The translations under genes and the position numbers were made by a program. The notes below the pieces were generated by a model. It did no database searches, was not told the origin of the DNA, and was given only the letters and a program-made list of their open reading frames with translations. Shown piece by piece: positions 5,978-35,491 of a DNA stretch of 49,203 nucleotides. Positions within the stretch are counted from its first letter, which is position 1; every line of letters begins with the position of its first letter. This DNA is from a virus, in IMG/VR virus record IMGVR_UViG_3300025875_000043. One strand, written 5' to 3'.

Positions 5978-5987
5978 CGGTTCACTC

Positions 5988-8060: not shown

Positions 8061-8063
8061 AGT

Positions 8064-9452: not shown

Positions 9453-9683
9453 TTAGAACGGTATTTCATCCGATGGCATATAGCTATCGCAACCGAATGC
9501 CACCACGCGCGGCGGCGGGTTGCCGTTGTGCATCATGCAATAAAGGTTTGGTTCCTTGAACGAAGCACAGTTGAAACAACAACGCTTGCTTCGTTCCACC
9601 GCCTTTGCAACAGCGTCGTGAATTGCCTTTACCAAAGCCGCCCGGTCTTTCACTTGGCTTTCGTTTACTGGGTCAGAACTCAT
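9453..9683 (-). CDS. Small Cys-rich (Zn-ribbon-like) protein ending in an SSB-type C-terminal tip (SDEIPF)
   Basis: 76 aa with CCFNC...C...C and C-terminus ...YMPSDEIPF-stop. Overlaps the helicase 3' end by 11 nt and abuts the next start. Confidence 0.65.
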   Translation of the reverse strand: MSSDPVNESQVKDRAALVKAIHDAVAKAVERSKRCCFNCASFKEPNLYCMMHNGNPPPRVVAFGCDSYMPSDEIPF

Positions 9684-11460: not shown

Positions 11461-12408
11461 TTAGGCAATCCTTGCGTAACTGGCACACCCTTGCGGGATG
11501 ATATATTTAGGTATGTTGGCGTTATGCACCTGGCAAAACCATTCCGCGCCTTCGACGGGAAAAGCGTTGCGACAGCTTCGGCAATTCTTTGTGGGCACTT
11601 CCCCACGGTGACACAGGCCGGCAAAGTCGCAATACTTACAGTCAAAGAACGTGTCGGTTTGTGCTATCTTCGGCGGGCGCGTTTGGCTGAACACAATGCC
11701 TTCAGCCTTCCTAAAAAGGTCATCGGCTTGCCGGAAGTCTAGCTTAACAATTTCAAAATATAGTTCGTCGGTTTCTTTGTTGACCGCGCAATAAAGGCCA
11801 TAATTGAAGTTATAAGCGCGGCCATAGGAACACATTTGCCGATAATGTTGGGGCTTGCTCTTTTGCACGCCGTCGCCGCCAGTGCGCGGCGCGTCCATTT
11901 TATCCCATGACGGCTTTTTGCCGGCTAGCTTGGCAAACGACTTTTCGTTGTGCGTCTTGAACTCGCCAAGCCAAATGATATGTTCAGCCGGAATGCCATA
12001 ACGTTCCGGCGGCTTCATCATGGCGTCAAGTGACCCGCCGAAGTGCCCTTTAGCACCGACGATGCGAAATTGCTTCTTGGTTTCAGGGTCAAGTTCGCGC
12101 ACCTGAAAACCGATGCCTTCAAGCCAACGAACAAAGCGGGCTTCTTCAGCGTGCCCACGGTTGAACAGCCGCAACATTCGGCCGCTGAACGCTTCAAAGC
12201 GCAACCACCTAAACGTATTCCAGGCGTAAGCTTGGCAGTCATTGCCGATGATCGAAGCGCCAAGATGCGTGCGCGGGTCTTCGGCAAATTCTTCGCGGCA
12301 AAACTTGTCAATGTCGGCTTGGATTTGAAGCACTAGCCGCTTGCGGTCAATAGGGTCAGCCAAGTCTAGGGCCGGCCCGCCATTGTGACCAATGCCAGGT
12401 TGGTTCAT
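11461..12408 (-). CDS. PD-(D/E)XK exonuclease, Cas4/RecB-like, with an Fe-S cluster Cys set
   Basis: GSLDAMM...WLGEFKTHN (D...ExK). An N-terminal Cys (GNDCQAY) plus C-terminal CKYCDFAGLC (CX2CX5C) matches the Cas4/AddB pattern. There is an extra CRSC...CQVH...C. The N-terminus carries GIGHNGGP. Confidence 0.75.
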   Translation of the reverse strand: MNQPGIGHNGGPALDLADPIDRKRLVLQIQADIDKFCREEFAEDPRTHLGASIIGNDCQAYAWNTFRWLRFEAFSGRMLRLFNRGHAEEARFVRWLEGIGFQVRELDPETKKQFRIVGAKGHFGGSLDAMMKPPERYGIPAEHIIWLGEFKTHNEKSFAKLAGKKPSWDKMDAPRTGGDGVQKSKPQHYRQMCSYGRAYNFNYGLYCAVNKETDELYFEIVKLDFRQADDLFRKAEGIVFSQTRPPKIAQTDTFFDCKYCDFAGLCHRGEVPTKNCRSCRNAFPVEGAEWFCQVHNANIPKYIIPQGCASYARIA

Positions 12409-12497: not shown

Positions 12498-13436
12498 TTA
12501 GCGCGCCTGACCCCAACCGGCAGCACCGCCGCCCGCCTGGCCACCGCCCTGACCGCCCCAACCGCCGGCCGCGCCGCCCTGTTGACCGCCGCCCTGACCT
12601 TGGCCGGCCTGGCCACCCTGACCGCCCCAAGCGCCTTGCTGACCGCCTTGACCGCCGCCATTCTGACCCTGACCCGCGTTCGGATCGGTGCCGCCTTGCT
12701 GGCCACCCCAACCACCGGCTTGACCGCCCTGGCCACCACCGTTGCCGAAGCCGCCGCCTTGCTGACCGCCGCCTTGCTGTTCGCCGCCCTGACCGCCACC
12801 GCCAAAGCCGCCACCGCCCTGACCGCCACCGAAGCCGCCTTGCTGACCCTGGCCACCCTGACCCTGGCCACCGCCGTTGTCGCCGCCCCATGACCCGGTG
12901 CCCTGAACGCCGCCAGCGGGCGGGCCGTTCGGTGCGCCACCGCTGTTGCCAGCCTGACCCGCGTTGGCCTGTGGCCCCGCGCCGGCCTTGCCAGGGGGGT
13001 TGCCGTTCACGTCATAGATGGCCTTGACTTCGGTGTAACCCTTGGCGCGGGCTTCTTCACCCTTCTGCAAGCCGACTTCGACGACGAACGGGATGCCATG
13101 AAGTTCCTGTGTGTCGTTGAACTGGAACTTGCCGATAACGTGGCAATACGCCGAAAGCTGGCCGTTCGCAATACGCACCACTTCGGGGTTGGAGTGCATA
13201 AGGTTCAGACGATCAGTGTGCTTCACGTCCTTTTGCGGGCCTTCGACGCACGCCAGTTCAAGGCCAAGATAGCCGCCCTTGACGTTGCCGAAGCTGTCCT
13301 TGGTATCAGTCGGTGCGCTGTTGACGATAACGACCTTATACTTGACGTTTTCGCCATTCGGGCCGGCCGGAAGACCGCCACCGCCAGCACCATAAGACGG
13401 CGTGTGCTGTTGTGCGTTGAACGAATAGGCAACCAT
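12498..13436 (-). CDS. DUF669-type phage ssDNA-binding-like protein with a C-terminal Gly/Gln-rich tail of about 170 aa. The alternative start at 13604 would add 56 aa.
   Basis: MVAYSFNAQQ...YKVVIVNS...RLNLMHSNPEVVRIANGQLSAYCHVIG matches my memory of the DUF669 core. SD GAAGGATTAAGCGAA precedes ATG 13436. It lies next to a Sak4-like ATPase, the usual pairing. Confidence 0.7.
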   Translation of the reverse strand: MVAYSFNAQQHTPSYGAGGGGLPAGPNGENVKYKVVIVNSAPTDTKDSFGNVKGGYLGLELACVEGPQKDVKHTDRLNLMHSNPEVVRIANGQLSAYCHVIGKFQFNDTQELHGIPFVVEVGLQKGEEARAKGYTEVKAIYDVNGNPPGKAGAGPQANAGQAGNSGGAPNGPPAGGVQGTGSWGGDNGGGQGQGGQGQQGGFGGGQGGGGFGGGGQGGEQQGGGQQGGGFGNGGGQGGQAGGWGGQQGGTDPNAGQGQNGGGQGGQQGAWGGQGGQAGQGQGGGQQGGAAGGWGGQGGGQAGGGAAGWGQAR

Positions 13437-13607
13437 TTCGCTTAATCCTTCTATCGTTTGGTTTCGTTTACAGGCTTCGATTGCGTAAAAGAGTTGGGCC
13501 GCTTGCCATTCAAGCCGTTTTGCCAGCCGCTCTATATCTAGCAATATCTCCTTATCTTCAGCCGTCAAGCGCGGCTCTTTGAAAGTTGTGCCACAGCCGC
13601 GCATGGC

Positions 13608-13929: not shown

Positions 13930-14781
13930 TCAAAGGTTGCGGTTATAAAGGTCAATGCCGCACGTCTTATAGATTGCGTCGGCAAGGTAATTCCAGCCTT
14001 GGGCGGCGGGAATGGCGACAAGGCCGGTCATGCCATAGCGATTGCCGGCAACCCATTGTGGTTGACGTTCAACGGCAAGTTGCCGGCCTTGATTGGAGGA
14101 AACGGCGCGGTTCGGGCCTTTGCCATCTTCCGACTTCATCACAAAGTAAGGTTCGTGAAGGAAGCCGATAAGGTCAGCCCATTGCGTAATAAATTCGCGC
14201 TTTCCGTATTCCTTTTGATTCTTTGGCGAATGCAACAACAAATCCCATTGCTGAAATTCGCCATGTTGCGGGTCTTGCACCAATGCCGGAAAGACGTGGC
14301 AAGTGACAATGGTGTTGACGCCGTAACGGGTCAGTTCGTCGGCGTAGCGGCTCCACATAGCGAACATATCATTGGCAATGCTGTAAGCCTTGCCATAACC
14401 GCCAAGCGCGCTGTTCAGCGTCAGGCCAGCCGGGTTGCCAGGCTTCCAAGCCTTATCCAACTGCAATGTCGCTTCGTGAATAAGCCGCTCCAAAGCGGTG
14501 GCGCTATCCCACACAATCGACGTGCCGGGGCCGATACGCTTAGCGATAGCCGCCGACCGCAATTCTTCGCATAGCTGGCTGACCGCCGCCCATGTGTGAA
14601 GTTCGGGGGTCTTTGCCACCGTCATAGCGGCGTAACCCATTTCAAGCGGCACTAGCAACGCGCCAGGTGCGCCACATGCCAGCGTCGTCTTGCCCATCTT
14701 TTCAGAACCGGCAATGACGATGCGTTGACCAACTTGTGTGCGGCCGGTTGTGACACCGCCAAGAATGCTTTGACCGGCCAT
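13930..14781 (-). CDS. Sak4-like RecA-fold ATPase (AAA_24 type single-strand annealing / recombination protein)
   Basis: Walker A IAGSEKMGKTT and Walker B-like SIVWDS. Size and position beside DUF669 fit. Confidence 0.7.
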   Translation of the reverse strand: MAGQSILGGVTTGRTQVGQRIVIAGSEKMGKTTLACGAPGALLVPLEMGYAAMTVAKTPELHTWAAVSQLCEELRSAAIAKRIGPGTSIVWDSATALERLIHEATLQLDKAWKPGNPAGLTLNSALGGYGKAYSIANDMFAMWSRYADELTRYGVNTIVTCHVFPALVQDPQHGEFQQWDLLLHSPKNQKEYGKREFITQWADLIGFLHEPYFVMKSEDGKGPNRAVSSNQGRQLAVERQPQWVAGNRYGMTGLVAIPAAQGWNYLADAIYKTCGIDLYNRNL

Positions 14782-15049: not shown

Positions 15050-15727
15050 TTAATCCTTCTTCGGTTCTTCAAAGGTCAGTTGCGGCGACGCCGGCTTTAG
15101 CGTCAGAATTTCAGCGATGGCGTCGCGCACGGCCTTTTCAGCCGGGATTGCTTCGTCAAGCTTTTCATATTCCGACAAGCTAAGTTCGGGCTTCCACTTG
15201 ATAACCCGCTTCAGCACTTGTTCGCCAACCGGGCCGAAACCTTCAAAGGCTTCAACGTCAGGCGTTGCCGGCGCACCGTCAATAATGCGGTCTTCAAGCG
15301 CCCGCACTTGTGCTTCAATGGCAATCGCCTTGCCTTCGGCGTCAACGGCTTCCTTGTTGCCAAGGGTCGCGGTCATGCCATGAACAAGCTTGACCTTATA
15401 GCCGCCGCCAATGTCATAGCGTTGCGTGCCCTTCTTGGGCGCGGGGAACAGCGTTGCCGTCACCTTCGCGCGCAAGTCGGCTTCGTTCGTCTTGGCGTTT
15501 TCCAAGACCGGCTTGGCCGCAAGCCAATGTTCAATTTCGGCATTGCGCCGAAGCCGGAAGTGTTCGGGGTCTTCCGTATCCGGCTGGCCGGCATACTTGA
15601 CTTCATACTTGACGACAGGTGCCGCCACTTCGACGGCGGCGGGGGTGCCCCAACCGTCGCCTGTGCCGCTGTTGTGACCAATGCCACCTTCAACGACGGG
15701 GGGAGTGCCCCAACCTTCACCGTTCAT
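15050..15727 (-). CDS. Hypothetical protein (225 aa), first gene of the leftward replication/recombination operon
   Basis: ATG 15727 is preceded by AAAGGAATTACCCAC. The N-terminus is MNGEGWGTPPVVEGGIGHNSGTGDGWGTP. The upstream 38 codons in the ORF track look non-coding. Confidence 0.55.
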   Translation of the reverse strand: MNGEGWGTPPVVEGGIGHNSGTGDGWGTPAAVEVAAPVVKYEVKYAGQPDTEDPEHFRLRRNAEIEHWLAAKPVLENAKTNEADLRAKVTATLFPAPKKGTQRYDIGGGYKVKLVHGMTATLGNKEAVDAEGKAIAIEAQVRALEDRIIDGAPATPDVEAFEGFGPVGEQVLKRVIKWKPELSLSEYEKLDEAIPAEKAVRDAIAEILTLKPASPQLTFEEPKKD

Positions 15728-15918
15728 GTGGGTAATTCCTTTGCCCGGTTTGTCGCCGCCATTGGCAGGAAATGCAAAGCGCCTGGCGCGATGCGAACCG
15801 TTCCCGTCAATGGCGACCCCGGCACTAACGCACGCCGGCAAGGCGCGGTCAAGCGCAAATTATTATTTTCCTTTCGGCCTTGCCGAGCCGTTCGGATCAT
15901 GCCAGCCATAGGCGGTCA

Positions 15919-15952: not shown

Positions 15953-16150
15953 ATGACTTCATCACTTTTAAGGGCAACTTTGCTGTTGCTTGACCAAACC
16001 GCGCTTGAAGATTGGAAGCGTATTGCTGACCAATGCGACGTTTCCGTTGGTTGGTTGCGGCTTCTTTGTGACGGGAAAGTCAAAGAACCTGGCGTGAACA
16101 AGATTGAACGTGTATATTGCGTTCTTTCCGGCAAGGCATTGGAACTGTAA
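15953..16150 (+). CDS. Small helix-turn-helix DNA-binding protein (Cro/YdaS-like)
   Basis: 65 aa. LEDWKRIADQCDVSVGWLRLLCDG fits an HTH. It is the first gene of a divergent unit and lies upstream of the primase. Confidence 0.45.
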   Translation: MTSSLLRATLLLLDQTALEDWKRIADQCDVSVGWLRLLCDGKVKEPGVNKIERVYCVLSGKALEL

Positions 16151-16152
16151 GA

Positions 16153-18555
16153 GTGTCATTCCAACGCATTCCCGGTGAACTGAAGTCTTTACGGCAATGG
16201 GTTATCTGGCGACTTGAAAAGCGCGAAGGTGCTAAGCCCACAAAGGTTCCCTATGCGCCGCGCCCCGGCGGCATAAAGGCCAGTGTAACCGACCCCAACA
16301 CATGGGGCACGTTCGATGAAGCTTGCGCCGCGCCTATGACGTGTGTGGAGCCGTGCGACTCTAGCGCCCCGCTTGAAGCAACCGGCTTCAGTGGCATTGG
16401 TTTTGTCTTCACTGACAATGACCCTTACGCTTGGATTGACCTTGACGACACGCACGGCGACAAGGAAGCGTTTGAACGCCAGGTGCTAATTCATACCAAG
16501 TTCAACAGTTACAGTGAACTTAGCCCTAGCGGCAATGGCCTTCACATTATCGTCAAGGGCCGGCTTCAGCATGGCCGGCGACGCGCTGCAATTGAGATAT
16601 ACAGCAACGAACGTTACGCCACCTTCACCGGCAACGTGTTCAACGACGCGCCTATTGAAGAACGCCAAGAACTTCTTGACATTCTCTTTGAAGAAATGGG
16701 CGGCGCGCCGGTCACATATGACCCGGCCAAGGATCAACCACAAACGCTAGACGATGACGCGGTGCTTGCGATGGCATCGGCGGCGGTCAATGGTGAAAAG
16801 TTCAGTCGGCTATTCACTGGCGACTTTCAATCAATGTATCCGTCGCAATCCGAAGCTGACTTTGCCCTTGTTGATATTCTGGCGTTCTATACACAGAATA
16901 TGGCACAGATTGCCCGGTTGTTCCGGCAATCGGCTTTGGGCAAGCGCGACAAGGCACAGCGTGACGATTATGTTGGCTATATGGTCAACAAGGCGTTTGA
17001 CCGGCAATTGCCGAAGGTTGATATTGACGGCCTGAAGATTGCCTTTGAACAGCGAAGGCTAAACGCTAACGTGCCGGCGGGGGAACCGGGCGGAACACCC
17101 GCCGACACGGCCAGCGGGGAGGCACACCTAGACCCGTCGAAACAAGTAGGGCTTAGCGCCGGCACGCCGTCGTCACACGCGCCCGGTAACGCTGTCAACC
17201 CCTTCCCGCCTGGCCTTATCGGGGAAGTCGCGCAATTCCTGCTAGACGCCGCGCCGCGCCGCGTGCCTGACATTGCCTTGGCCGGTGCCATCGCCTTGTT
17301 ATCCGGCATCACTGGCCGCGCGTACAACGTCAATGGCCAGGGCTTGAACCAATATATTCTTATGTTGGCGGCAACCGGCGCGGGCAAAGACCTTATCGCA
17401 TCCGGCGTCAGTAAGCTTATGGCCGAAGTGGTGAAGTCAACCCCGGCCGCTGACGATTTTAAGGGGCCGGGTGAATTGGTCAGTTCGGCCGGCATAATCA
17501 AATGGCTTGACAAGAAGCCCGCCGTGTTCAGCATCCTTGGCGAATTTGGCGTGAAGCTAAAGGAAATGGCGGACCCGCGCGCCAACGCGCACCTGGCCGG
17601 CCTAGAGCGCATCTTATTGCAGCTATACAGCAAGTCAGGCCAGGGCAACGTTCTTGACCCGATGGCGTATAGCGACACGCAAAAGAACACGTCGGCTATC
17701 AAGTCACCGTCGCTGACTATCCTTGGCGAAAGCGTGCCCGAACGGTTCTATGAAATGCTTGACGACACGATGATTGCCAGCGGCTTGTTGCCGCGCTTCA
17801 TGGTGTTTGAATACAAGGGGCCAAGACATTACCTGAACGAAGACACCGCCCACGCTAAGCCGTCGTTCCGGCTTGTGCAACAAATCGCTGACTTGTGCGC
17901 GCAAAGCCTGACCCTGGCACACAATGGCAACGTGTTCAACGTGCCACAGGATAAGGCGGCAACCGAAAGCTTCAGGGAGTTTGAACGATGGACAACCGAC
18001 CAAATCAATCAAGCCAAGTCGGAAGTCATGCGTCAGCTATGGAACCGCGCGCACCTGAAGGCCATTAAGCTGGCCGCTGTGTGCGCCGTTGGCATCAACA
18101 TGCACAACCCGGTCATAACGATCAATGAATGTATGTGGGCAACACAAATGATCGTTGACCAAACCAATCGGCTAATCGCCAAGTTTGAGACTGGCCAAAT
18201 CGGCTTTGCCAATAATGACGAAGGCAAGCAATTAGCGGCTGTGGTGAAGTGCATTAGCGAATATCTGAACGAACCACATGGCCGCTATGCCAAGTATCAG
18301 CCGAACGCCGATATGCACCGAAGCGCGGTTATACCTGAAAGCTATATCAGCCGGCGGCTTATCGCGGTGGCGGTGTTCCGCAATGACCGCATGGGTTCGA
18401 CCAATGCTATCAAGCGTTCACTGAAGATGCTTATGGAAGCTGACGAATTGCGAGAAGTGCCTAAAGCGCAAATGCAACAGTCATTCGGAAGCGGCCCGCG
18501 TGCCTATGTGGTGGCAAACGCAAGCCGCTTCCTTCCTGGCGGACCTGAAGACTAA
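16153..18555 (+). CDS. Bifunctional primase-polymerase (AEP) with PriCT-like and DUF3987-type helicase/NTPase domains
   Basis: WVIWRLEKREGAKPTKVPY, GIGFVFTDNDPYAWIDLDD (DxD), SPSGNGLHIIVKG, SEADFALVDILAFYT and Walker A LAATGAGKD. GTG 16153 lies 2 nt after the HTH stop (TTG 16117 is also possible). Confidence 0.8.
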   Translation: MSFQRIPGELKSLRQWVIWRLEKREGAKPTKVPYAPRPGGIKASVTDPNTWGTFDEACAAPMTCVEPCDSSAPLEATGFSGIGFVFTDNDPYAWIDLDDTHGDKEAFERQVLIHTKFNSYSELSPSGNGLHIIVKGRLQHGRRRAAIEIYSNERYATFTGNVFNDAPIEERQELLDILFEEMGGAPVTYDPAKDQPQTLDDDAVLAMASAAVNGEKFSRLFTGDFQSMYPSQSEADFALVDILAFYTQNMAQIARLFRQSALGKRDKAQRDDYVGYMVNKAFDRQLPKVDIDGLKIAFEQRRLNANVPAGEPGGTPADTASGEAHLDPSKQVGLSAGTPSSHAPGNAVNPFPPGLIGEVAQFLLDAAPRRVPDIALAGAIALLSGITGRAYNVNGQGLNQYILMLAATGAGKDLIASGVSKLMAEVVKSTPAADDFKGPGELVSSAGIIKWLDKKPAVFSILGEFGVKLKEMADPRANAHLAGLERILLQLYSKSGQGNVLDPMAYSDTQKNTSAIKSPSLTILGESVPERFYEMLDDTMIASGLLPRFMVFEYKGPRHYLNEDTAHAKPSFRLVQQIADLCAQSLTLAHNGNVFNVPQDKAATESFREFERWTTDQINQAKSEVMRQLWNRAHLKAIKLAAVCAVGINMHNPVITINECMWATQMIVDQTNRLIAKFETGQIGFANNDEGKQLAAVVKCISEYLNEPHGRYAKYQPNADMHRSAVIPESYISRRLIAVAVFRNDRMGSTNAIKRSLKMLMEADELREVPKAQMQQSFGSGPRAYVVANASRFLPGGPED

Positions 18556-19011: not shown

Positions 19012-19773
19012 TTAGGCTAAGCCAAGCCGGCGTAATATCGGAAGGCCGTTGGCGTGAAAGCACGCGATGGCAAAGCCGCGTGGCGTTTCTGACCTAATTT
19101 GCTTGGTCTTGGCTGACTTGCCGCCTAGCTTCGCCCATTGCTTCGACCCGCGCACGACGCCAGCCGCCTTGCCGCTTTCCAATTCGATTATCAGCGGTGC
19201 CACCGGCTTCTTCCAGGGCATGACGAACCCCCCCCCGGTCCATAGGCAAGTTTTCTTGGTGTAAGCGTCGCGCGGCTCTATATAGTCAGGCCAACGCGGG
19301 TGTATGTCGTCTTCTGGCAAATAGCCGCCATACTCACAAGGGTTGAAGATATGGCATGGCTTGCGCCATTCGGTCGAAATACGGCCAACCGGGTTTTCGG
19401 CAAAATACGGCACGCCAAGTTCGTCGGCAACATCGCGAACGAAGTAAACCAACGCCATAGCTTCAGCAACATAATTCGGGTTACGCTCTAGTTTGCCCGC
19501 CCAATGCTTGGCACCAAGGCCCGCAAGGTCAGTGCATGGCGGAAAGCCGGCGACGAACAGCGGCTTTAGCGCCATGATGTTGGCACGCACCACAGGATCA
19601 AGCACGTCGGCTTTGATGAAGTGAAGCCAGCCCTTGCCGACACGTTCGCTATGGTTGGCGTTCAGAATATCAAGGCAATAGCAGTCAAACCCGGCTTCCG
19701 CCCAAGGGCGCAACATATTGCCGCTTTCGTCATAGATGCTGACGACCACAGGCAAGCCGGGTTCCCAAATCAT
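19012..19773 (-). CDS. DNA (cytosine-5) methyltransferase-like protein
   Basis: Motif IV GFPPCTDLAGLG (PC catalytic Cys) and motif VI FAENPVG. The motif I region is divergent (VVSIYDESGNMLRPWAEAGFDCYCLDI), similar to short phage Dcm-type enzymes. Confidence 0.6.
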   Translation of the reverse strand: MIWEPGLPVVVSIYDESGNMLRPWAEAGFDCYCLDILNANHSERVGKGWLHFIKADVLDPVVRANIMALKPLFVAGFPPCTDLAGLGAKHWAGKLERNPNYVAEAMALVYFVRDVADELGVPYFAENPVGRISTEWRKPCHIFNPCEYGGYLPEDDIHPRWPDYIEPRDAYTKKTCLWTGGGFVMPWKKPVAPLIIELESGKAAGVVRGSKQWAKLGGKSAKTKQIRSETPRGFAIACFHANGLPILRRLGLA

Positions 19774-20632: not shown

Positions 20633-20681
20633 CCGGCTTTTGCTATTTAATTCGGGGAATTTCGACCTGGCCGCTGACCGG

Positions 20682-20962
20682 GATATAATGGCGTATAATG
20701 GGGATATAACGCAAAAACGGCGGTTTTCCGCCAGATATAATGAATATAACGATATAATGGGAAAGAGACTAAAAGGGGTAATTCGGGGGATTAAAAAATG
20801 GTGCGAATTTGCTAATTCACCGAATAAAGAATTGCCTGAATTAAATTAGGTCTTCTACGTATTATATTCATTATATCGTTATATATTTGACTAGAAATGG
20901 CTGATTTGCGTGCCTTTCGGCGTATAACGCGCCCATCATATCCGCTATATCCGCTCCACCGG
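20682..20962. repeat. Array of about 12 copies of a 9-10-bp (G/C)RTATAAYG(G) unit in both orientations (iterons/operators/stacked -10 boxes) in an AT-rich divergent control region
   Basis: Forward copies at 20682, 20692, 20703, 20734, 20743, 20751 and 20931. Inverted copies lie within 20861-20886, and degenerate inverted copies at 20934-20962. Also AATTCGGGGRAT at 20650 and 20780. Confidence 0.7.
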
Positions 20963-21739: not shown

Positions 21740-21925
21740 ATGAAGTTCGTGAAGCTGACCACTATGGCCGGTCTTGTCGCTTACTATAATGTCAGCGAAA
21801 TTGTGTTTTTCTTTGACAGCGATTTGCACGGTTGCATCCTTCGCTTGAAGGGTGACGGCGGCGCGGAATGCGTCAGGGAAAGTGCCGAAGAAGTTGCCGA
21901 GTTGATAAGGAAGGCTAAGCCATGA
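21740..21925 (+). CDS. Hypothetical protein (61 aa)
   Basis: ATG lies 2 nt after the upstream stop, and the 3' end has an ATGA overlap with the next gene. Confidence 0.5.
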   Translation: MKFVKLTTMAGLVAYYNVSEIVFFFDSDLHGCILRLKGDGGAECVRESAEEVAELIRKAKP

Positions 21926-22866
21926 CCTTTATTAAATATCAGCACTTCAACCTTCGGCAATCATCGTTTGCGCTAATCGACAAGATTAGCGCCATCATTG
22001 ATGAATTTGGCGCGGATGGTTACACGTTGACCCTTCGCCAAATTTACTATCAGTTGGTTCAAGCCAACGACATTCCCAACACCCCTAGCAGCTATGACAA
22101 TCTTGGCGTGCTGATTAAGAAGGGGCGGCTTATGGGGCTTATCAGTTGGGATGCCATCGAAGACCGCAATAGGGCGGTCAGCCCTTGGCTTATTCAGCCG
22201 AACCAACGCCAGGTGCTTGACGGCTTAGAGCAACAGCTAGCCTATGACCTATGGACGCCACAGGGGGTCTATATTGAAACATGGGTTGAAAAGGACGCGC
22301 AAGCCAACGTTGTTGAACGGCCTTGTGCCGAATGGCGCGTGCCTTTCATGGCGTGCCGGGGCTATATGTCAACTTCGGAGATATACAGCGCCGGCAATCG
22401 CTTCAGGGAAGCCGCCGATGAAGGCAAGCGCGTTGCCATCATTCACCTTGGCGACCATGACCCTAGCGGTTGGGATATGTCGCGCGACAACGAAGACCGG
22501 GTTGAACTGATAGCCGGCTTTAACGTCGAAGTGCGGCGCATTGCCCTTCAGACAAGTCAGGTGCGCGAACTTCGCTTGCCACCACAGCCGGCTAAGGTGA
22601 CTGACAAGCGGTTTGCCGAGTATCAGCGCCAATACGGTTCGGAAAGTTGGGAATTGGACGCCTTGCGCCCGCAATACCTGGCCAACCTGTTAAGCGAAGC
22701 CATCAAAGAGTTTGTTACCGATTGGCCGCTTTGGGAACGCACGCTAGCTGAAGAAGCTGAATGGCGTAAGCCCCTGGCCGAACTTCATAGCCGTTGGCCT
22801 GACGTGCTTGACTTCCTTGCAAAGCCGATTAAGCCGGAAAGCCTTGAACCTGACTTTATGGAGTAA
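21922..22866 (+). CDS. Stand-alone Spo11 / topoisomerase VI subunit-A-like protein (Topo mini-A type: 5Y-CAP plus Toprim)
   Basis: TLRQIYYQLV (catalytic Tyr motif, cf. RDIYY), TWVEKDAQ (Toprim Glu, cf. VEKxA) and IHLGDHDPSGWDM (Toprim DxD, cf. DxDPxG). At 314 aa it is too small for a full type II enzyme, and there is no B-subunit/GHKL ATPase gene nearby. Confidence 0.7.
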   Translation: MTFIKYQHFNLRQSSFALIDKISAIIDEFGADGYTLTLRQIYYQLVQANDIPNTPSSYDNLGVLIKKGRLMGLISWDAIEDRNRAVSPWLIQPNQRQVLDGLEQQLAYDLWTPQGVYIETWVEKDAQANVVERPCAEWRVPFMACRGYMSTSEIYSAGNRFREAADEGKRVAIIHLGDHDPSGWDMSRDNEDRVELIAGFNVEVRRIALQTSQVRELRLPPQPAKVTDKRFAEYQRQYGSESWELDALRPQYLANLLSEAIKEFVTDWPLWERTLAEEAEWRKPLAELHSRWPDVLDFLAKPIKPESLEPDFME

Positions 22867-22872
22867 CCGGGC

Positions 22873-23232
22873 ATGACGAAGGAACCGACGAAGGCACAGC
22901 TTCAGGGCAAGATTGCCGAACTTGAAGCCAATGTTGTCATGGAACGCGATTTGCGGACCCGCGTACAAGGCGACCGTAAGGACGCACAGAATGCGCTTGA
23001 AGCCGAACGCAAGGCGCACAACTTCACTCGCGACGTGTTGCACTCCACCGAATTGGAGTTGGCCAAGACGCGGGGTTATCTTGACGCCAGGCGTGACGCC
23101 GAACCACCGATTATGGTGCCACAGTCGCGCGAAGGTGCGTTGGCCAGCTATGCCGATGGCACCCGTTCGTTGCCGCCGACTAGCGGCACTTGGTCAGACA
23201 ATGCCAATCGTTCGCCTTGGTGGCATCGGTGA
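22873..23232 (+). CDS. Hypothetical coiled-coil protein (119 aa)
   Basis: Heptad-rich, charged N-terminal half. ATG is preceded by GAGTAACCGGGC. Confidence 0.55.
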   Translation: MTKEPTKAQLQGKIAELEANVVMERDLRTRVQGDRKDAQNALEAERKAHNFTRDVLHSTELELAKTRGYLDARRDAEPPIMVPQSREGALASYADGTRSLPPTSGTWSDNANRSPWWHR

Positions 23233-23510
23233 ACGCCGATGAAGATTGCGCTGTGTGCGGGCATGACACACCGTGCCAATGTGGTACGCGGGTTGCCAAG
23301 GTGCCGGTGCTTAACACCGCAACACTAGGGCCGGTGCTTAACACCGCAACACTAGGGCCGGTCAGGTTCGACCCTGACCGCGACGCCGAACGTGCGCGCC
23401 TTGTGCGCGAAGCCATGCGGGCTTGCGATAGTTCGCTTTTGGCCATAGCGTCCAACTATTGCAGCGACGCCACCTTGGCCAAGCTTGGAAGGATGCTGAA
23501 ACATGGCTGA
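23229..23510 (+). CDS. Hypothetical Cys-rich protein containing a duplicated PVLNTATLG nonapeptide
   Basis: GTG 23229 overlaps the upstream TGA (the start is uncertain, as TTG/GTG alternatives exist from 23190). Contains CAVCGHDTPCQC. Confidence 0.45.
   Translation: MNADEDCAVCGHDTPCQCGTRVAKVPVLNTATLGPVLNTATLGPVRFDPDRDAERARLVREAMRACDSSLLAIASNYCSDATLAKLGRMLKHG
23304..23357 (+). repeat. Perfect 27-bp tandem duplication (2 copies plus 5 bp of a third)
   Basis: ccggtgcttaacaccgcaacactaggg x2, in frame. Confidence 0.95.
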
Positions 23511-24018
23511 AACGCCGCCAATCACATATTTTCTTCAAGGGCACGCCGCCGCTGAAGCCGGCCAGCCGGAAAGCGCCAATCCCTTGTTGTTCGACGCCTG
23601 GCCGTTTCAGGCTTGGCTTGCCGGCCATCGGTTCTATGCCGAGTATGCCAGCGCGCGGGTTCTTCAGCATGACAGCCCGCTTGAACGGGTTGACGTGACG
23701 CCGCACGAACAAGGCCGGGTCGCACACGGCAAGGGCCGGCCTTTGGAGGCTTGCCCTTACGAACCGCAAAGCCATGATTGGCGCATGTGGCGCTGTGGTT
23801 GGGTTGAACGCCTGAACGAATTGACCACCGAAGACAGCGGCGAACAACACGCCAACTGTGGTGCCAGGCGCTTGGCTGTCATCATTTACGCGATTATTTC
23901 AGTCATCATTTATGCCGCCATTGTGTGGGCATTTGTAGCTTTACCATCGGCCCGTAACACCGGATATAAAGCCTGTGTTAGCAAAGCCGGTAACACTTGG
24001 GTAACTTGTAAGCGTTAA
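23503..24018 (+). CDS. Membrane-anchored protein with two Rmf/CrpP-like repeats
   Basis: GRVAHGKGRPLEACPYEPQSHDWRMWRCGWVE fits the Rmf/CrpP-type motif (G..A..G....CPY....W..GW). A weaker first copy is QGHAAAEAGQPESANP...WLAGH. C-terminal TM helix LAVIIYAIISVIIYAAIVWAFVAL. Confidence 0.45.
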   Translation: MAETPPITYFLQGHAAAEAGQPESANPLLFDAWPFQAWLAGHRFYAEYASARVLQHDSPLERVDVTPHEQGRVAHGKGRPLEACPYEPQSHDWRMWRCGWVERLNELTTEDSGEQHANCGARRLAVIIYAIISVIIYAAIVWAFVALPSARNTGYKACVSKAGNTWVTCKR

Positions 24019-26672: not shown

Positions 26673-27533
26673 ATGGGCGAATATCTGAACAGCGGTAAGC
26701 AAGTCATGCACCGCAATTTTGAAGAAGGTGGCCAAGCACCTTTGACCCATATTGCCGATGCTGGTGACAATGAAAAAGCGCACTTTTTGGCGACCGCCGC
26801 AAACGCCTTTGATGCAAGCCGCGAAGCCGCCGCCAACATCATGGCTGACGAACCGCTGGCGTTGTTGCCGGCTTATGACTATATCAGCGAAGCCCGCGTG
26901 ACGCTTTCGCCTTCTTGGCATGGTGAAAAGGTCAGTCGCGCCAACTTTGTGGAACGCCTGAACGCGGCGATTGATGCGGCTAACCGGCTTGATATGGTCA
27001 AGAAGACCTTGTTTTATGGCCGCGACAACAACCTTGACGGCGCGCTTGGCCAGGCGAACCTTCGCGGCTTGCCGCACATGATCGGTGGCGATGGCACGCC
27101 GGCATTGGCGGCTAATGTTGAAAGCAATGTCAATATCATTCATGGCATCATTGGCGCTTTCACGGAAGCCGGCGAACTGTTGGAAGCAATGCGAACCGCC
27201 ATCAACAGCGGTCAGCCGTTCGACAAGGTGAACCTGAAGGAAGAAGTTGGCGACCTGTTTTGGTATCTGGCCGTTATTGCCCACGAATGCGGCTTTAACT
27301 TTGAAGGCGCACAGCGCGTCAATATCGCCAAGCTTCGCGCCCGCTTCCCGGATGCGTTCACCGAACACGACGCGAACAACCGGAACCTTGGCGTTGAACG
27401 CCAGGTGCTTGAAGCCGGTGTGCCGCGCGACATTGCCGAACAGGCTTTGCCGGCGCATTATCGCACGCGGCGGATGGATGGCGAACGCAACTTGGACGGC
27501 AACGCCATCGAAGCGCAAAAACCGACTTCCTGA
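26673..27533 (+). CDS. mazG: MazG-like nucleoside triphosphate pyrophosphohydrolase with an N-terminal extension of about 140 aa
   Basis: IHGIIGAFTEAGELLEAM ... NLKEEVGDLFWYLAVIAHECGF ... NIAKLRARFP. Confidence 0.7.
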   Translation: MGEYLNSGKQVMHRNFEEGGQAPLTHIADAGDNEKAHFLATAANAFDASREAAANIMADEPLALLPAYDYISEARVTLSPSWHGEKVSRANFVERLNAAIDAANRLDMVKKTLFYGRDNNLDGALGQANLRGLPHMIGGDGTPALAANVESNVNIIHGIIGAFTEAGELLEAMRTAINSGQPFDKVNLKEEVGDLFWYLAVIAHECGFNFEGAQRVNIAKLRARFPDAFTEHDANNRNLGVERQVLEAGVPRDIAEQALPAHYRTRRMDGERNLDGNAIEAQKPTS

Positions 27534-27624
27534 AATTTAGTCGTTGACAGCCGGAAAGACGGCTATAAGGTCCAAATCTGCAACGGCGTTGAACCGGGCA
27601 ACAACACTTGAAGGGAATATGAAG

Positions 27625-28287
27625 ATGGCCAAGGCACCGACCCCCACGCGCACCCCCGTTACGGCAACCGGCGTTGCGTTGCTGGCACTGATTGCCGCCG
27701 CTGGCGGAACCATGATGCTGACCCAGGCCGAAGGCCAGGACATTATCGCGGCCGGCGATGCCACGGTTGACACCACCAAGACCGAAGGCGACACGGCGGC
27801 GGTTTCGTTGACCGAAGCTGGCCAGGCCAAGGTTGATGCCGAGAACGGCAAGCCCACCGGCACCGAAGGCGACACGGCGGCGGTTTCCGGCACGTTCGAC
27901 ATTGACGACAGCGTGCCCATGCCTGGCGCTTCGACGCGGGGCCGTTCGGGCGGCTATCCGTTCGACAAGCTGGAAGTCGGCCAGTCGTTCCACGTCGCCA
28001 AGTCGGCGGACAACCCCACGCCGGCTGACCGCCTGGCGTCGTCGGTCAGCGGTGCGCGCACCAAGTATTCGACCGACACAGGCGAAACCGAAGAAGTCAC
28101 GGTGAAGACCTACAAGAAGGGCGAGAACGGCAAGGGCTTTGCCAAGGATGCGGACGGCAAGCGCATCGTGGAAAGCGAAACCAAGGCGACCCGCCCCAAG
28201 CTGAAGGTCACGCGCGACTTCACGGTGAAGACCGTTGGCGCGGATGATCCGCGCGGCGAAGGTGCCCGCGTGTGGCGCACCGCCTAA
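27625..28287 (+). CDS. Hypothetical protein (220 aa) with a hydrophobic N-terminal segment and an internal TEGDTAAVS repeat
   Basis: GAAGGGAAT precedes ATG 27619/27625. A terminator follows. Confidence 0.55.
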   Translation: MAKAPTPTRTPVTATGVALLALIAAAGGTMMLTQAEGQDIIAAGDATVDTTKTEGDTAAVSLTEAGQAKVDAENGKPTGTEGDTAAVSGTFDIDDSVPMPGASTRGRSGGYPFDKLEVGQSFHVAKSADNPTPADRLASSVSGARTKYSTDTGETEEVTVKTYKKGENGKGFAKDADGKRIVESETKATRPKLKVTRDFTVKTVGADDPRGEGARVWRTA

Positions 28288-28435: not shown

Positions 28436-28714
28436 ATGAACAACCGCCATAACGTCATTGCGTATCTGGCGACGCTGCTAGCCATTGTGGTGTTGGCCCT
28501 GGCCGGTGCCGGGGTGTGCATCGCTGCTAACGCCAACACTGAAGTTGGCCTTTCGCGCATCATTGGCGCGCTGGCGTTCATCGGTGCGGCCATTGCCGGT
28601 CTTACTGGCGTTATTGGCACCTTCAAGGCGACGCAATCGGCAACCACCACACAGAACGTCACCAACGCTGAAACCGTCACCGCGCCGGCTGGCGCTGAAG
28701 GCGGTGCGAAGTGA
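28436..28714 (+). CDS. Putative holin (92 aa, two predicted TM helices)
   Basis: VIAYLATLLAIVVLALAGAGVCIA and IIGALAFIGAAIAGLTGVIG. It lies directly upstream of, and overlapping, the endolysin. Confidence 0.55.
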   Translation: MNNRHNVIAYLATLLAIVVLALAGAGVCIAANANTEVGLSRIIGALAFIGAAIAGLTGVIGTFKATQSATTTQNVTNAETVTAPAGAEGGAK

Positions 28715-29451
28715 CGGCGCTTAGCTATAAGCCGTCATTGTCAATGGTGCTGTCACATGAAGGCGGTTACGTCAATCATCCGGCGGACCCTGGCGGGCCA
28801 ACCAACAACGGTATAACCCAACGGGTCTATGACGCTTATAGGAAGCTGAAGGGTTTGCCGGTTCAATCGGTAAAGCTTATCAGTTCCACCGAAGTTGCCG
28901 ACATTTATAATCGGCAATACTGGAAACTTATGCGAGGCGATGACTTGCCCGCTGGCCTTGATTACGCTGTGTTTGACTTTGCGGTCAATTCTGGCACGTC
29001 ACGAGCCATTCGTTATCTTCAGCGGCTTGTTGGCGTCAATGATGATGCTGTGCTTGGTGACGACACCCTTGGCGCTGTATATGAAGCGGCCAAGAAGAAC
29101 GAAGAAGCCTTGATTATCTCTTACTGTGCGAACCGCCTTCAGTTCTTGAAGTCGCTGGCCACATTCCCCACATTTGGCAAGGGTTGGTGCCGTCGCGTTA
29201 TCGGCAACATTGCTGGCGTGCAAAAGAACGATGTTGGCGTTGTTGACGCCGCCGTTTACATGGCCCGCGCCGACTTCACTTATATATTGCCGGCGGCAAT
29301 CGGCACCAAGCCGGAAGAATTACCGGCCAAAGCTATCGCGCCGGAAGTTGACCGCGACGTGTTCCCGTTGGCAACTCCGGCAACTTTGGAGGAACTGACC
29401 AAAGACAACGATATGTTGGCGGCGGTCATTGCGCTTAGCATGGTGAACTAA
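28711..29451 (+). CDS. Endolysin: GH108 muramidase plus PG_binding_3 domain
   Basis: LSHEGGYVNHPADPGGPTNNGIT (GH108 signature), then AVNSGTSRAIRYLQRLVGVNDDAVLGDDTL. Confidence 0.85.
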   Translation: MTALSYKPSLSMVLSHEGGYVNHPADPGGPTNNGITQRVYDAYRKLKGLPVQSVKLISSTEVADIYNRQYWKLMRGDDLPAGLDYAVFDFAVNSGTSRAIRYLQRLVGVNDDAVLGDDTLGAVYEAAKKNEEALIISYCANRLQFLKSLATFPTFGKGWCRRVIGNIAGVQKNDVGVVDAAVYMARADFTYILPAAIGTKPEELPAKAIAPEVDRDVFPLATPATLEELTKDNDMLAAVIALSMVN

Positions 29452-31163: not shown

Positions 31164-31601
31164 ATGTGGAACACCGCGCCTTTAATCTTTGAAGACGAAG
31201 ACGAAGAAAAGCTATTGGCTGACTTCGTGAAGTATTCCGCAATTCATAAAGACCGCGACCCCTTTGAAATTGCGGCTTATGTGTTCCGCAACCAACGTGA
31301 CCCTGAACTTCGCGCCCAACAAGCCGCCATGATTTGGGCGAAAGACATTGACGTTGCTGAACGCATCCGACTTGCGCGGCTTAACGGCGGTGCTGAAGGT
31401 TCGGTTATTCCAACCAAAGAACAGCGGATGCGCCAGCTTCAAGAAATGTTTGAAGACGTTACTTTGCCGGTCAAGGAACGTATCGCGGCGCAACGGCTGT
31501 TGTCTGAAATGGCTGGCGATATTGTAAAGGCCGTTGACAAGAACGTTACCACTGGCAAACGCCAGCCCCGCCAAGTCATCTACGCCAAATATGATGACTG
31601 A
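31164..31601 (+). CDS. Putative terminase small subunit
   Basis: 145 aa, directly upstream of and overlapping TerL. Called by position only. Confidence 0.45.
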   Translation: MWNTAPLIFEDEDEEKLLADFVKYSAIHKDRDPFEIAAYVFRNQRDPELRAQQAAMIWAKDIDVAERIRLARLNGGAEGSVIPTKEQRMRQLQEMFEDVTLPVKERIAAQRLLSEMAGDIVKAVDKNVTTGKRQPRQVIYAKYDD

Positions 31602-32904
31602 CCGTGGCATTGGTGACAACGGCGGGCCACCGCTTGAACCCCTAGTTGTCCGCTTCACTGACCCGCAATATGAACTGATAACGACCAAGGCGCGTTATCC
31701 GGCGATGGTTGCCGGCTTCGGCGCTGGCAAAACTGGCGCGTTGATTGCACGCGCCATAGCATTGAAGCTGGCATATCCTGATAACGACATTGCCTATTAT
31801 CTGCCAACTTATGACCTTGTGACAACTATTGCGTTTCCAAGGTTTGAAGAAGCCTTGGCGGAACAAGGTTTTGTCTTCGGTGAAGATTACACCACTGTTC
31901 GCAACCAAACGCCGAAGATTAAGATAATTAATTGCGGTGACATTATCTTTAGAACTATGGACCGGCCGCAACGTATTGTCGGCTATGAAGTCGCTGATAG
32001 CTTTGTTGACGAACTTGACACGCTGAAAACCGAAGACGCACGGGCGGTGTGGTCGAAGATTATTGCGCGTAACCGGCAAAAGAAGCACGACGGCAGCGAC
32101 AACACCATTGCTGTGGGCACTACACCTGAAGGTTTCCGCTTCGTCTATGATCGGTGGAAGAAAGCCCCGCCTAGTGACGAATATAAGATAATTCGTGCCA
32201 GCACTTACAGCAACCAACGCAACTTGCCGGCTAACTATATTTCTGACTTGTTAGCTGACTATCCCACACAGCTAATCGCCGCCTATCTTGACGGCGAATT
32301 TGTCAACTTGACGGCTGGCGCGGTTTACAACGAATTTGACCGTAAGTTGAATGGTTGCACGACTACGGTTCAACCTGGCGAAGCCTTGCACATTGGCATG
32401 GACTTCAACGTTGGTAAGATGGCGGCTGTTGTGTTTGTTGCCAGGAATGGCGACCCGCACGCTGTTGCCGAGTTGACCGGGTTGTTAGACACGCCGGCTA
32501 TGATTAAGGCGTTGAAAGCGCGCTTTCCTAATCATGTCATCTTTATTTATCCTGACGCCAGCGGGCAAAACCGCAAGTCGGAAAACGCCAGTTCGTCAGA
32601 CGTTGCTTTGCTTCAGCAAGCCGGGTTCAATGTTTTGGTCAATGCCAGTAACCCCGCTGTTAAAGACCGCATACTTTCAGTTAATCGCATGATCCATGCC
32701 GGTGGCAAGCGGCTGTTAAAAGTCAACGCCGACCTTTGCCCCGCATTCTGTGAGACATTAGAAAAACAAGCCTATGACAAGAACGGGGAGCCTGATAAGA
32801 CTTCTGGCCTTGACCACGCGGGCGATGCCGGCGGATATTTCATTTGTTACCGTTTCCCTGTCGTTATGGGCCGGGTCCAAAAGGTAAAGCTAGGCGGTGT
32901 GTAA
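31591..32904 (+). CDS. terL: Terminase large subunit
   Basis: Walker A GFGAGKTG and Walker B-like SFVDELD. Nuclease half with DFNVGKMAAVV...YPDASG. ATG 31591 lies within the TerS 3' end. The N-terminus carries GIGDNGGP. Confidence 0.85.
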   Translation: MMTDRGIGDNGGPPLEPLVVRFTDPQYELITTKARYPAMVAGFGAGKTGALIARAIALKLAYPDNDIAYYLPTYDLVTTIAFPRFEEALAEQGFVFGEDYTTVRNQTPKIKIINCGDIIFRTMDRPQRIVGYEVADSFVDELDTLKTEDARAVWSKIIARNRQKKHDGSDNTIAVGTTPEGFRFVYDRWKKAPPSDEYKIIRASTYSNQRNLPANYISDLLADYPTQLIAAYLDGEFVNLTAGAVYNEFDRKLNGCTTTVQPGEALHIGMDFNVGKMAAVVFVARNGDPHAVAELTGLLDTPAMIKALKARFPNHVIFIYPDASGQNRKSENASSSDVALLQQAGFNVLVNASNPAVKDRILSVNRMIHAGGKRLLKVNADLCPAFCETLEKQAYDKNGEPDKTSGLDHAGDAGGYFICYRFPVVMGRVQKVKLGGV

Positions 32905-34421: not shown

Positions 34422-35491
34422 TGGCTAAGGGTCGCGGCGACGCACAACAGCTTTTCGACGGCTTCGTTTCGTCGGCGCTTGACATATTGCGTTTGGCGGC
34501 AAGCGAAAAGAACAAGGTGTTGAAGCGGCTGGCGCGGCTAGAGCGCAAGCTAATTGGCACGCTGTCTGAAACCGACCTGACGACGGCACAGAAAGCCGAC
34601 GTGAACAAGATTGTTCGCGGTGCCAATGGCATCATCGCCACGCACTATGCTGAAATTGCTGACTTGCCTGAACTGGCGGCAATATCGCTGTTCGCGGCTG
34701 AAAACGTGCAAGACATTCTGAAGATTTACTTTGGCAAAGACGCCATTGGCATTCCGCGTCAAGCTTACTTTGACAGTGTGGCCAGTGACGTTCTAATTCA
34801 AGGTTCGCCCGCCGCCGATTGGTGGCGCGGTCAAGAAGCGGCAACACAGTTCAAGTTCGCGCAACAGCTTCGTCTTGGCATGATTGCCGGCGAAACCAAC
34901 CAACAAATCATTGCGCGTATTGTGGGCAAATCCGGCCAGCCTGGCATTATGGAGATTGCCAAGCGCGACGCGGCTTCGTTGGTTCAAACGTCGGTTCAGA
35001 CTGTTGCCAATGACGCCAGGCGCAACACCTTCAACGCCAATGACGACTTGATTAAAGGCAAGCGTCAAGTTTCGACATTGGACGGCCACACTAGCGAAGT
35101 GTGCATGGCTTATTCTGGCGGTGAATGGGACTTAGACGACAAGCCGATTAATGGAACAACGTTGCCCTATAAAGGCGGAACGCCACGGCATTTCAAGTGT
35201 CGTTCGGTTGAAGTGCCCATTACCAAGACCTTTAAGGAACTTGGCCTAGACATTTCTGAAAGCCCCATTGGCACCCGCGCAAGCGACGAAGGCCAAATTG
35301 CCGCTGACACCACCTTTGACGCATTCCTGAAGCGCAAAGACAAAGCCTATCTTGACGAAAAGCTTGGCCCTGGCCGCGCCGAACTATTCCGCGACGGCAA
35401 GATAACGCTTCGCGACTTGGTGAACGGTGACGGCAACCCGGTGACGCTTGAAGAACTTAGGGCTATTGCAAGAAAGCGGCGCGGCGGATAG
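34421..35491 (+). CDS. Head morphogenesis protein (SPP1 gp7 / Mu F family)
   Basis: QVSTLDGHTSEVCMAYSG ... TPRHFKCRS, and its position after the portal. Confidence 0.75.
   Translation: MAKGRGDAQQLFDGFVSSALDILRLAASEKNKVLKRLARLERKLIGTLSETDLTTAQKADVNKIVRGANGIIATHYAEIADLPELAAISLFAAENVQDILKIYFGKDAIGIPRQAYFDSVASDVLIQGSPAADWWRGQEAATQFKFAQQLRLGMIAGETNQQIIARIVGKSGQPGIMEIAKRDAASLVQTSVQTVANDARRNTFNANDDLIKGKRQVSTLDGHTSEVCMAYSGGEWDLDDKPINGTTLPYKGGTPRHFKCRSVEVPITKTFKELGLDISESPIGTRASDEGQIAADTTFDAFLKRKDKAYLDEKLGPGRAELFRDGKITLRDLVNGDGNPVTLEELRAIARKRRGG

Follow-up and report, generated by a model that had tools for sequence, protein, structure and literature searches.

Stand-alone homologs of the A subunit of type IIB topoisomerases were described as the Mini-A subfamily by Takahashi, Da Cunha, Krupovic, Mayer, Forterre and Gadelle in 2020 (PMC7671362). 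These proteins were defined by a length of about 300 amino acids (aa), by the presence of the 5Y-CAP and Toprim domains alone, and by the signatures RxxY/FY, E...DxDxxG and a T2BI box that sets the subfamily apart, xWELDAL; they are without the N-terminal segment that binds Top6B, have no 'Mini-B' and are encoded by viruses or proviruses, Listeria, Salmonella and Pseudomonas being named as host genera of the viruses (PMC7671362). Their role has been called unexplored in the literature, including a 2024 review (PMC7671362; PMC11894792), in agreement with the initial annotation of the sequence studied here, which held activity and role not to be established. In this study, we examined one such protein, encoded at 21922..22866 (plus strand) of the IMG/VR virus record IMGVR_UViG_3300025875_000043. 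This whole stretch of DNA (49,203 nucleotides, nt) is called the window hereafter, and all positions refer to it unless another locus is named. By its sequence, the protein is a canonical Mini-A: it is homologous to the A subunit of type IIB topoisomerases, stands alone and carries all published sequence signatures. The family was already described (named in 2019/2020 and included in PHROGs) and the window protein is an ordinary member of it. New here are an update of the family size, the WELDAL box that settles membership, a high-confidence fold match with Top6A that includes DNA-bound structures, the lack of a conserved neighbour on either side of the gene, and the testable prediction, drawn from 2026 work on Topo VI, that the pair R39-E244 brakes cleavage.

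The gene is an open reading frame (ORF) running from an ATG start to a TAA stop, with a 314-aa product. Its start codon overlaps the stop codon of an upstream 61-aa ORF (21740..21925, plus strand) as ATGA and is preceded by a Shine-Dalgarno-like AGGAAGG, so that the gene looks real and translationally coupled. A coiled-coil-like ORF of 119 aa (22873..23232, plus strand; weak match to PHROG 16645) begins 6 nt past the Mini-A stop and is co-transcribed with it. The overlap and this short spacing therefore place the Mini-A gene, together with the 61-aa ORF, inside a rightward operon.

The product is composed of a winged-helix or 5Y-CAP domain (about residues 10-85, nt 21949..22176), a Toprim domain (about residues 113-248, nt 22258..22665) and a C-terminal helical region (residues 250-300) ended by a short acidic tail, PESLEPDFME (region and tail, nt 22669..22863), all on the plus strand. 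The CAP motif TLRQIYYQLV (residues 37-46, nt 22030-22059) provides the R-x-x-[Y/F]-Y signature as R39-Q-I-Y42-Y43, where R39 lies at nt 22036-22038, Y42 is the aromatic residue and Y43, at nt 22048-22050, is the predicted catalytic tyrosine. In the Toprim domain, the predicted metal-binding residues are E123 (nt 22288-22290), within WVEKDAQ (residues 121-127, nt 22282-22302), and those of D178-H-D180-P-S-G183 (nt 22453-22470), the DxDxxG signature, within GDHDPSG (residues 177-183, nt 22450-22470). A fourth, family-diagnostic motif, missing from the list of the initial annotation, is SWELDAL (residues 242-248, nt 22645-22665), i.e. the T2BI box S242-W-E-L-D-A-L248, whose predicted clasp residue E244 lies at nt 22651-22653. 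The Top6B-binding CAP segment is absent, the predicted catalytic tyrosine standing at position 43 versus 103 or 106 in Top6A. Finally, the gene is virus-encoded: terminase, portal, tape measure, tail tube, endolysin and a replication module are all found in the window.

The protein matched PHROG 6247 ('DNA topoisomerase') with an E-value of 3.9e-95 over residues 3-297, far more strongly than chance would allow. A word-index search retrieved 7,378 clusters at E<=1e-10, none of which carried a Pfam domain, and a full HMMER scan of 1.84 billion representatives retrieved 6,957 at E<=1e-3 (3,696 at E<=1e-10). The family now amounts to about 7,000 clusters at 50% identity, versus 'hundreds' in 2020, and ranges over phages of Proteobacteria, Firmicutes, Actinobacteria and Bacteroidota as well as archaeal viruses. 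It was found in 84 cultured-virus records, all of them at most 46% identical to the window protein. They include Roseobacter RDJL phages, Rhodobacter RcSimone-Hastad, Pseudomonas NP1/PaMx25-like phages, Xylella Sano and Salvo, Chi-like Salmonella phages, Listeria LWP01, Flavobacterium and Cellulophaga phages, and the archaeal virus HCIV-1, and their GenBank annotations differ ('DNA topoisomerase', 'DNA binding protein' or 'hypothetical protein'). Identity reached 41-46% with the homologs in Pseudomonas, Salmonella (Chi-like), Listeria, Rhodobacter and Roseobacter phages; the nearest relatives (93-60% identity) are all uncultured, cultured phages reaching about 46% at most. Together with the PHROG 6247 match, the identity to homologs in phages of Listeria, Salmonella and Pseudomonas, three of the genera listed in PMC7671362, indirectly favours a place within the monophyletic Mini-A clade. 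Reference bacterial and archaeal genomes yielded only distant relatives (34-41% identity), located in metagenome-assembled genomes, and so gave no clue to the host.

In alignments of 69 and 118 relatives, R39, Y42, Y43, E123, K124, D178, D180, G183 and E244-L-D-A-L248 are invariant, and W243 is conserved in at least 90% of the sequences. The most divergent viral homologs (Cellulophaga phi3ST:2, Chryseobacterium MA9V-3 and HCIV-1), aligned at 19-25% identity, keep R39, Y43, E123, D178, G183 and E244 and have lost Y42 and the full WELDAL box. We take Y43 as the catalytic tyrosine because it is kept in these divergent homologs and stands four residues past the arginine, as in Top6A. On this sequence comparison, the window protein belongs to the canonical core of the family. 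The C-terminal region is its most variable part: some members add acidic tails, Zn-ribbons or coiled coils. Such additions were seen in members of 400-470 aa (P0121, P0143, P0156, P0186, P0161 and P0195). Some of them are long acidic tails with an aromatic end (...DRFGDSY, ...DAFGDRY), reminiscent of replisome-interaction tails; CxxC Zn-ribbon repeats occur in one member and coiled coils in two (P0161 and P0195). A fusion ('Rosetta stone') analysis found that the extensions of the 400-470-aa members carry no Pfam domain and are mutually different.

The predicted fold points in the same direction as the motifs. A single-sequence AlphaFold model was unusable (pLDDT 38), and the structural work was done on an AlphaFold2 (AF2) model built from the 118-sequence alignment (pLDDT 92, pTM 0.83). 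Its layout comprises the winged-helix domain at about residues 10-85 (helices 13-31, 38-47 and 55-70 plus a wing), the alpha/beta Toprim domain at about 113-248 (strands and helices alternating at 116-122, 142-144, 170-176 and 203-207) and C-terminal helices (250-262, 268-290 and 292-300). Compared with the Protein Data Bank (PDB) using Foldseek, this model gave only four matches at E<=1e-3, all of them Top6A (1d3y_B, 9o0g_C/A and 9o8p_A), each with a probability of 1.00, about 300 aligned columns and a sequence identity of 12-13%. The first is from M. jannaschii (1D3Y), while 9O0G and 9O8P are 2026 M. mazei Topo VI-DNA complexes. The next matches were generic Rossmann-like folds (E>=8e-3), and no OLD, DnaG, GajA, JetD or MksG chain was among the significant PDB matches. 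Residue equivalences to Top6A were taken from motif order and spacing, from the published alignment and from the Foldseek match, which came without residue-level output. The initial annotation had thus been right in reading 21922..22866 as a 314-aa protein with three ordered motifs and in naming it a stand-alone Topo VI-A/Spo11-like 'Mini-A', an identity that translation, PHROG 6247 and the Top6A-like predicted fold all sustain. The two checks it had proposed also came out in its favour: the tyrosine pair is invariant in both alignments, with Y43 persisting at 19-25% identity, and the structural comparison did not place the protein in another Toprim family of the OLD or primase type.

Compared with the described Mini-A subfamily (PMC7671362; PHROG 6247), the window protein is alike in length, domains, motifs, missing B subunit and viral coding, and differs in nothing of substance. 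With Top6A (1D3Y, 9O0G, 9O8P) it shares the same predicted fold over its whole length and the catalytic set, i.e. the arginine and tyrosine four residues apart, the Toprim glutamate, the DxD and the T2BI/clasp glutamate. It is, however, about 60 residues shorter at the N-terminus, and so lacks the Top6B-binding part of the CAP domain, and it carries WELDAL where Top6A has an R/KxExxA/S box. Having no B subunit, it has therefore no ATP-driven gate or strand passage, unlike the enzyme to which Top6A belongs. Spo11 offers a closer parallel in one respect, since it is also a Top6A-type cleavage core that keeps the tyrosine and works without topoisomerase strand passage. Spo11, however, acts together with a degenerate B-like subunit and numerous accessory proteins, whereas Mini-A has no recognisable partner; Mini-A is moreover viral in origin, and permanence of its predicted breaks is unsupported.

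The plasmid-borne Topo VIII is, like Mini-A, specific to mobile elements, devoid of the N-terminal CAP segment and endowed with an extended conserved T2BI box. It differs by a GHKL ATPase and transducer, either fused or adjacent, which Mini-A lacks, by its box (RVELNAM) and by a conserved arginine three residues past the tyrosine, where the window protein has V46. In the archaeal sphaerolipovirus HCIV-1, ORF35 (locus L101, 2474-3505) has VELNAL in place of WELDAL, nearer to the Topo VIII box, and an asparagine in place of the second aspartate of DxD; judging from these residues, this homolog may stand between the Mini-A and Topo VIII groups. MksG/JetD, the nuclease subunit of Wadjet, is likewise a Top6A-related Toprim protein without an ATPase domain of its own. 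It acts as Toprim dimers that cut DNA hydrolytically within an SMC complex, in host defence, and has no CAP tyrosine (PMC10123090), whereas Mini-A keeps the tyrosine, is phage-encoded, has no SMC neighbours and matches nothing in PADLOC. The window protein does not belong to the MksG/JetD type, given its invariant CAP tyrosine, the absence of SMC genes nearby and the absence of JetD and MksG from the significant Foldseek matches.

On balance, Mini-A probably breaks and rejoins DNA independently of ATP, in the service of phage DNA replication or recombination. An active enzyme is implied because the tyrosine, its arginine, the metal-binding triad and the T2BI glutamate are strictly conserved across thousands of clusters. 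It would work as a homodimer mediated by the Toprim domain, like Top6A, in which Y43 from one subunit would be paired with the Mg2+ site (E123, D178, D180) of its partner; attack of the tyrosine on the adjacent DNA phosphodiester would lead to a 5'-phosphotyrosyl covalent break. Topo VI breaks both strands in this way, with a stagger of 2 nt. R39 and E244 would correspond to the R102-E342 'electrostatic clasp' that keeps the tyrosine of Topo VI off the DNA. In Top6A of M. mazei, Y106 is held back by R102 and E342, and an E342Q variant hyper-cleaves (PMC13040014), while in M. jannaschii E340 hydrogen-bonds R99 and Y103 (PMC7671362); the arginine-to-tyrosine spacing of four in Mini-A is that of R99/Y103 and R102/Y106, respectively (PMC7671362; PMC13040014). 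Since the equivalents of the clasp are invariant, cleavage is probably gated and reversible rather than constitutive, and it could perhaps be licensed by DNA geometry. A CAP tyrosine that is kept, unlike in MksG/JetD, likewise argues for a covalent, potentially reversible reaction. One possible task would be the relaxing or untangling of replicating or concatemeric phage DNA.

Several points weigh against this view. The TM-scores of the Top6A matches were only 0.47-0.50, with a root-mean-square deviation of about 8 Å, values that we tentatively attribute to a different relative orientation of the domains. A Pfam scan of the protein and a phmmer search of the PDB gave no significant Top6A match, and the profile of 69 sequences found only noise (E>=0.27) among PDB sequences. 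Because profile and sequence searches fall short of significance, the evidence linking the protein to Top6A comes from structure prediction, from the order of the motifs and from the published analysis, itself based on PSI-BLAST. Without an ATPase gate, the mechanism of true strand passage is unclear. The family also occurs in temperate phages beside excisionase or integrase genes, so that a role bound to one replication strategy is unlikely. Lastly, literature searches gave no biochemical, genetic or other experimental study of any Mini-A, and its activity, oligomeric state and role are hence all inferred. No NCBIfam or PADLOC model matched the protein, and the viral structure library (BFVD) returned no significant match but weak partial Toprim/primase matches. 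In favour of the Top6A link, a Pfam scan of 69 members gave weak ties by sequence: the sub-threshold matches, to TP6A_N (5/69), TOP6A-Spo11_Toprim (4/69), DUF2399 (5/69) and JetD_C (1/69), again belong to this superfamily.

A bolder form of the break-and-rejoin reading would make Mini-A a fully autonomous, partner-less enzyme in which Tyr43 breaks and rejoins DNA and the Arg-Glu clasp is released by DNA geometry alone, i.e. a minimal, possibly ancestral Spo11/Topo VI core used for programmed breaks or DNA relaxation during phage replication. We hold this only tentatively, as a real but somewhat doubtful possibility. If true, small soluble Mini-A proteins would be a tractable model for the gating of Spo11-type cleavage, and the finding would bear on the question of whether type IIB topoisomerases descend from a stand-alone A protein of viruses.

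Whether Mini-A has a partner was addressed through its gene neighbourhood. No GHKL/Bergerat (B-subunit) domain was detected among about 44 scanned window ORFs, including every ORF of at least 400 aa, in line with the earlier remark that no such partner was seen in the genome. As neither the protein nor the scanned ORFs contain a GHKL ATPase or transducer, the label 'DNA topoisomerase' used in GenBank and PHROGs is not established. The initial annotation had also put forward the downstream coiled-coil protein (22873..23232) as a possible partner and suggested a survey of its co-occurrence with Mini-A in related phages; this candidate was rejected. In L001, where Mini-A is 91% identical, the ORF has no homolog and the gene after Mini-A is instead a homolog of window 23190-23510. 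The downstream genes of L095 and L099 are unrelated to it by direct comparison, and the clade relatives that carry P0002 (86% identical), P0011, P0013 and P0014 have shorter downstream genes (86, 66, 47 and 57 aa, respectively). It is absent from the other viral loci and is unrelated to the coiled-coil tails fused onto P0161 and P0195. Overall, 82 downstream genes fell into 74 PHROG families with at most three members each.

An upstream partner was rejected likewise: the 88 upstream genes matched 109 PHROG families, with at most two members each. The 61-aa upstream ORF of the window had no family match in Pfam, PHROG and PADLOC scans, is missing from L001 and shares no homology with the gene of equal length (61 aa) that precedes Mini-A in L099. 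This latter gene (L099, 2819-3004), directly 5' of Mini-A, shows a weak Pfam match to a Tad2-like (anti-Thoeris) domain. In summary, neither neighbour of Mini-A was conserved in the census of about 85 loci, and a BLAST clustering of the ORFs within about 5 kb in 95 loci gave no neighbour family present in more than 10 of them. The annotated neighbours are mostly devoted to DNA metabolism, i.e. ligase, Sak4, RecT, Erf, RusA, exonuclease VIII, HNH, methyltransferases, nucleotide kinases, ThyX, endonuclease V, polymerase and helicase, and the surroundings of Mini-A are likewise given over to DNA metabolism in NP1, RcSimone-Hastad and a Chi-like phage. Mini-A is a self-contained gene moving among phage replication and recombination modules; within its own phage clade, it is a conserved anchor amid fast-changing small genes.

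This neighbourhood bears on the first alternative to a break-and-rejoin enzyme, in which Mini-A, like Spo11, would deliberately cut both strands of phage (or host) DNA in an essentially irreversible way; the Cas4-type exonuclease, SSB and Sak4 would then process the ends to feed recombination-dependent replication or recombination between co-infecting genomes. The catalytic core is indeed that of Spo11/Top6A with no ATPase, the window encodes a Cas4-domain exonuclease, Sak4 and SSB, and genes adjacent to Mini-A in other phages include Sak4, RecT, Erf, RusA, exonuclease VIII and ligase. Such genes are, however, adjacent inconsistently, no neighbour family exceeding 3 of the 82-88 loci, and a covalently blocked 5' end needs a dedicated removal activity, for which the PHROG and Pfam scans of the ORFs revealed no candidate. 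Moreover, R39 and E244, the two invariant residues of the predicted clasp, suggest restrained cleavage. We consider this scenario unlikely.

The clasp can be turned into an argument for a second alternative, namely that Mini-A provides the catalytic subunit to an enzyme of two parts, its 'Mini-B' being supplied by the host, lying elsewhere in the phage genome or escaping recognition at the sequence level. In Topo VI, it is the B subunit that licenses cleavage (PMC13040014), and Mini-A keeps a clasp that needs release; Takahashi et al. left this possibility open (PMC7671362), and the acidic tails with an aromatic last residue, the Zn-ribbons and the coiled coils of some members resemble interaction modules. 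Yet the scanned ORFs include no GHKL protein, no neighbour is conserved across the approximately 85-95 loci of the PHROG census and BLAST clustering, the flanking genes vary even between clade relatives, and hosts that extend from Listeria to haloarchaea argue against one specific host partner. A hidden partner thus seems to us quite improbable, slightly more so than Spo11-like breakage.

Very unlikely, in our view, is a hydrolytic Toprim nuclease resembling MksG/JetD or OLD/Gabija, which would degrade host, plasmid or competing-phage DNA through no covalent intermediate. There are precedents, in that Top6A-related Toprim dimers are plain endonucleases in Wadjet/MksBEFG and Gabija (PMC13040014; PMC10123090); the few weak DUF2399 or JetD_C matches within the family would fit, and the phage DNA methyltransferase might mark self DNA. 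Against this, MksG/JetD have lost the CAP tyrosine, while Y43 and R39 are invariant here and persist at 19-25% identity, the significant Foldseek matches are Top6A only, with no JetD, MksG, OLD or GajA, and PADLOC gave no match. As for another Toprim family (DnaG-type primase or OLD-type nuclease) or a non-catalytic decoy with a superficial likeness to the Top6A motifs, a reading that would suit the lack of significant Top6A matches in Pfam, NCBIfam and PDB sequence searches and the weak partial Toprim or primase matches in the viral structure library, it is already effectively refuted by a whole-length structural match to Top6A (probability 1.00, the rest being generic Rossmann-like folds at E>=8e-3), by four invariant family motifs in the correct order, by the separate 812-aa primase of the phage and by a strict conservation of every catalytic residue that is not expected of a decoy.

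We also considered Mini-A as the source of the site-specific nicks known in some Pseudomonas phages and rejected this idea. The nicked phages are tf-like podophages, a group of about 60 phages that is not among the 84 Mini-A records, of which only 19 are Pseudomonas phages, and the paper on these podophages names no topoisomerase-like gene.

As the window protein is an ordinary member of a described family, this single gene does not change the picture; the family is what matters, with thousands of clusters that have a complete Topo VI/Spo11 catalytic set, no ATPase and a function that nobody has reported. The 2026 Topo VI-DNA structures make the predicted R39-E244 brake testable in Mini-A, and for work on function the window instance is no more approachable than many cultured carrier phages, such as Pseudomonas phage NP1 (gp49), a Chi-like Salmonella phage (ORF47) or Rhodobacter phage RcSimone-Hastad (gp35). 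A clear biochemical answer would bear on how Spo11-type cleavage is controlled, how type IIB topoisomerases arose in evolution and how the gene should be labelled in many phage genomes.

Turning to the genome that carries the gene, ORF scans against PHROGs and Pfam indicated that the window is a nearly complete genome of the siphophage type. On its left side, a tail fibre gene (157-2739) is followed by genes on the minus strand encoding DNA Pol A (5988-8060), a clamp-like factor of 462 aa (8064-9452; PHROG 947 'DNA polymerase processivity factor', with no Pfam family), a helicase (9673-11460), the Cas4-type exonuclease (11461-12408), SSB (12498-13604) and the Sak4 annealase (13930-14781), then by the 812-aa primase (16117-18555, plus strand) and the DNA methyltransferase (19012-19773, minus strand). 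The genome content given in the earlier reading, with a polymerase, a primase, nucleases and a recombinase, is thus correct. To the right of Mini-A are MazG (26673-27533), the endolysin (28711-29451), the large terminase (31534-32904), the portal (32844-34421), a head morphogenesis protein (34421-35491), the tail tube (41950-43197) and the tape measure (44113-47364). Two further proteins, encoded at 15050-15841 (minus strand) and 27544-28287 (plus strand), belong to recently defined families of unknown function, DUF7173 and DUF7303. At the nucleotide level, comparison of the window with GenBank phages gave no match. The nearest isolate by polymerase is Variovorax phage VCLv21 (48% identity), which also has a Mini-A homolog.

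The rightward Mini-A operon lies on the early/replication side of the genome and begins after a divergent AT-rich control region at about 20.64-20.89 kb. This intergenic region (20640-20890) separates the methyltransferase and small ORFs, oriented leftward, from the Mini-A operon; it contains GATATAATG(A/G) in three direct and two inverted copies, and a sigma-70-like promoter at 20662-20689. It could comprise early promoters or operators, or an origin.

The genes flanking Mini-A differ among close relatives, and the region behaves as a hotspot of gene exchange. In L001, a P-loop kinase-like ORF (5582-6001) lies upstream of Mini-A, and an ORF a few genes 3' of it (7705-8103) resembles pyrimidine-dimer glycosylases of the endonuclease V type by its N-terminal sequence. 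In the window, a 171-aa ORF (23503-24018) combines a domain of the Rmf/CrpP fold with a predicted transmembrane helix that follows it; it matched NCBIfam NF041887 at 3.7e-7 and Pfam RMF at 3.2e-6, just below the cut-off. A gene with a faint RMF match recurs a few genes 3' of Mini-A in the clade relatives L095, L097 and L098, in a syntenic position with varying intervening genes. Finally, in the small Cys-rich ORF at 23190-23510, a nine-codon segment (LNTATLGPV) is perfectly duplicated in tandem, and the homolog of this ORF in L001 (6942-7247) has the segment in a single copy.

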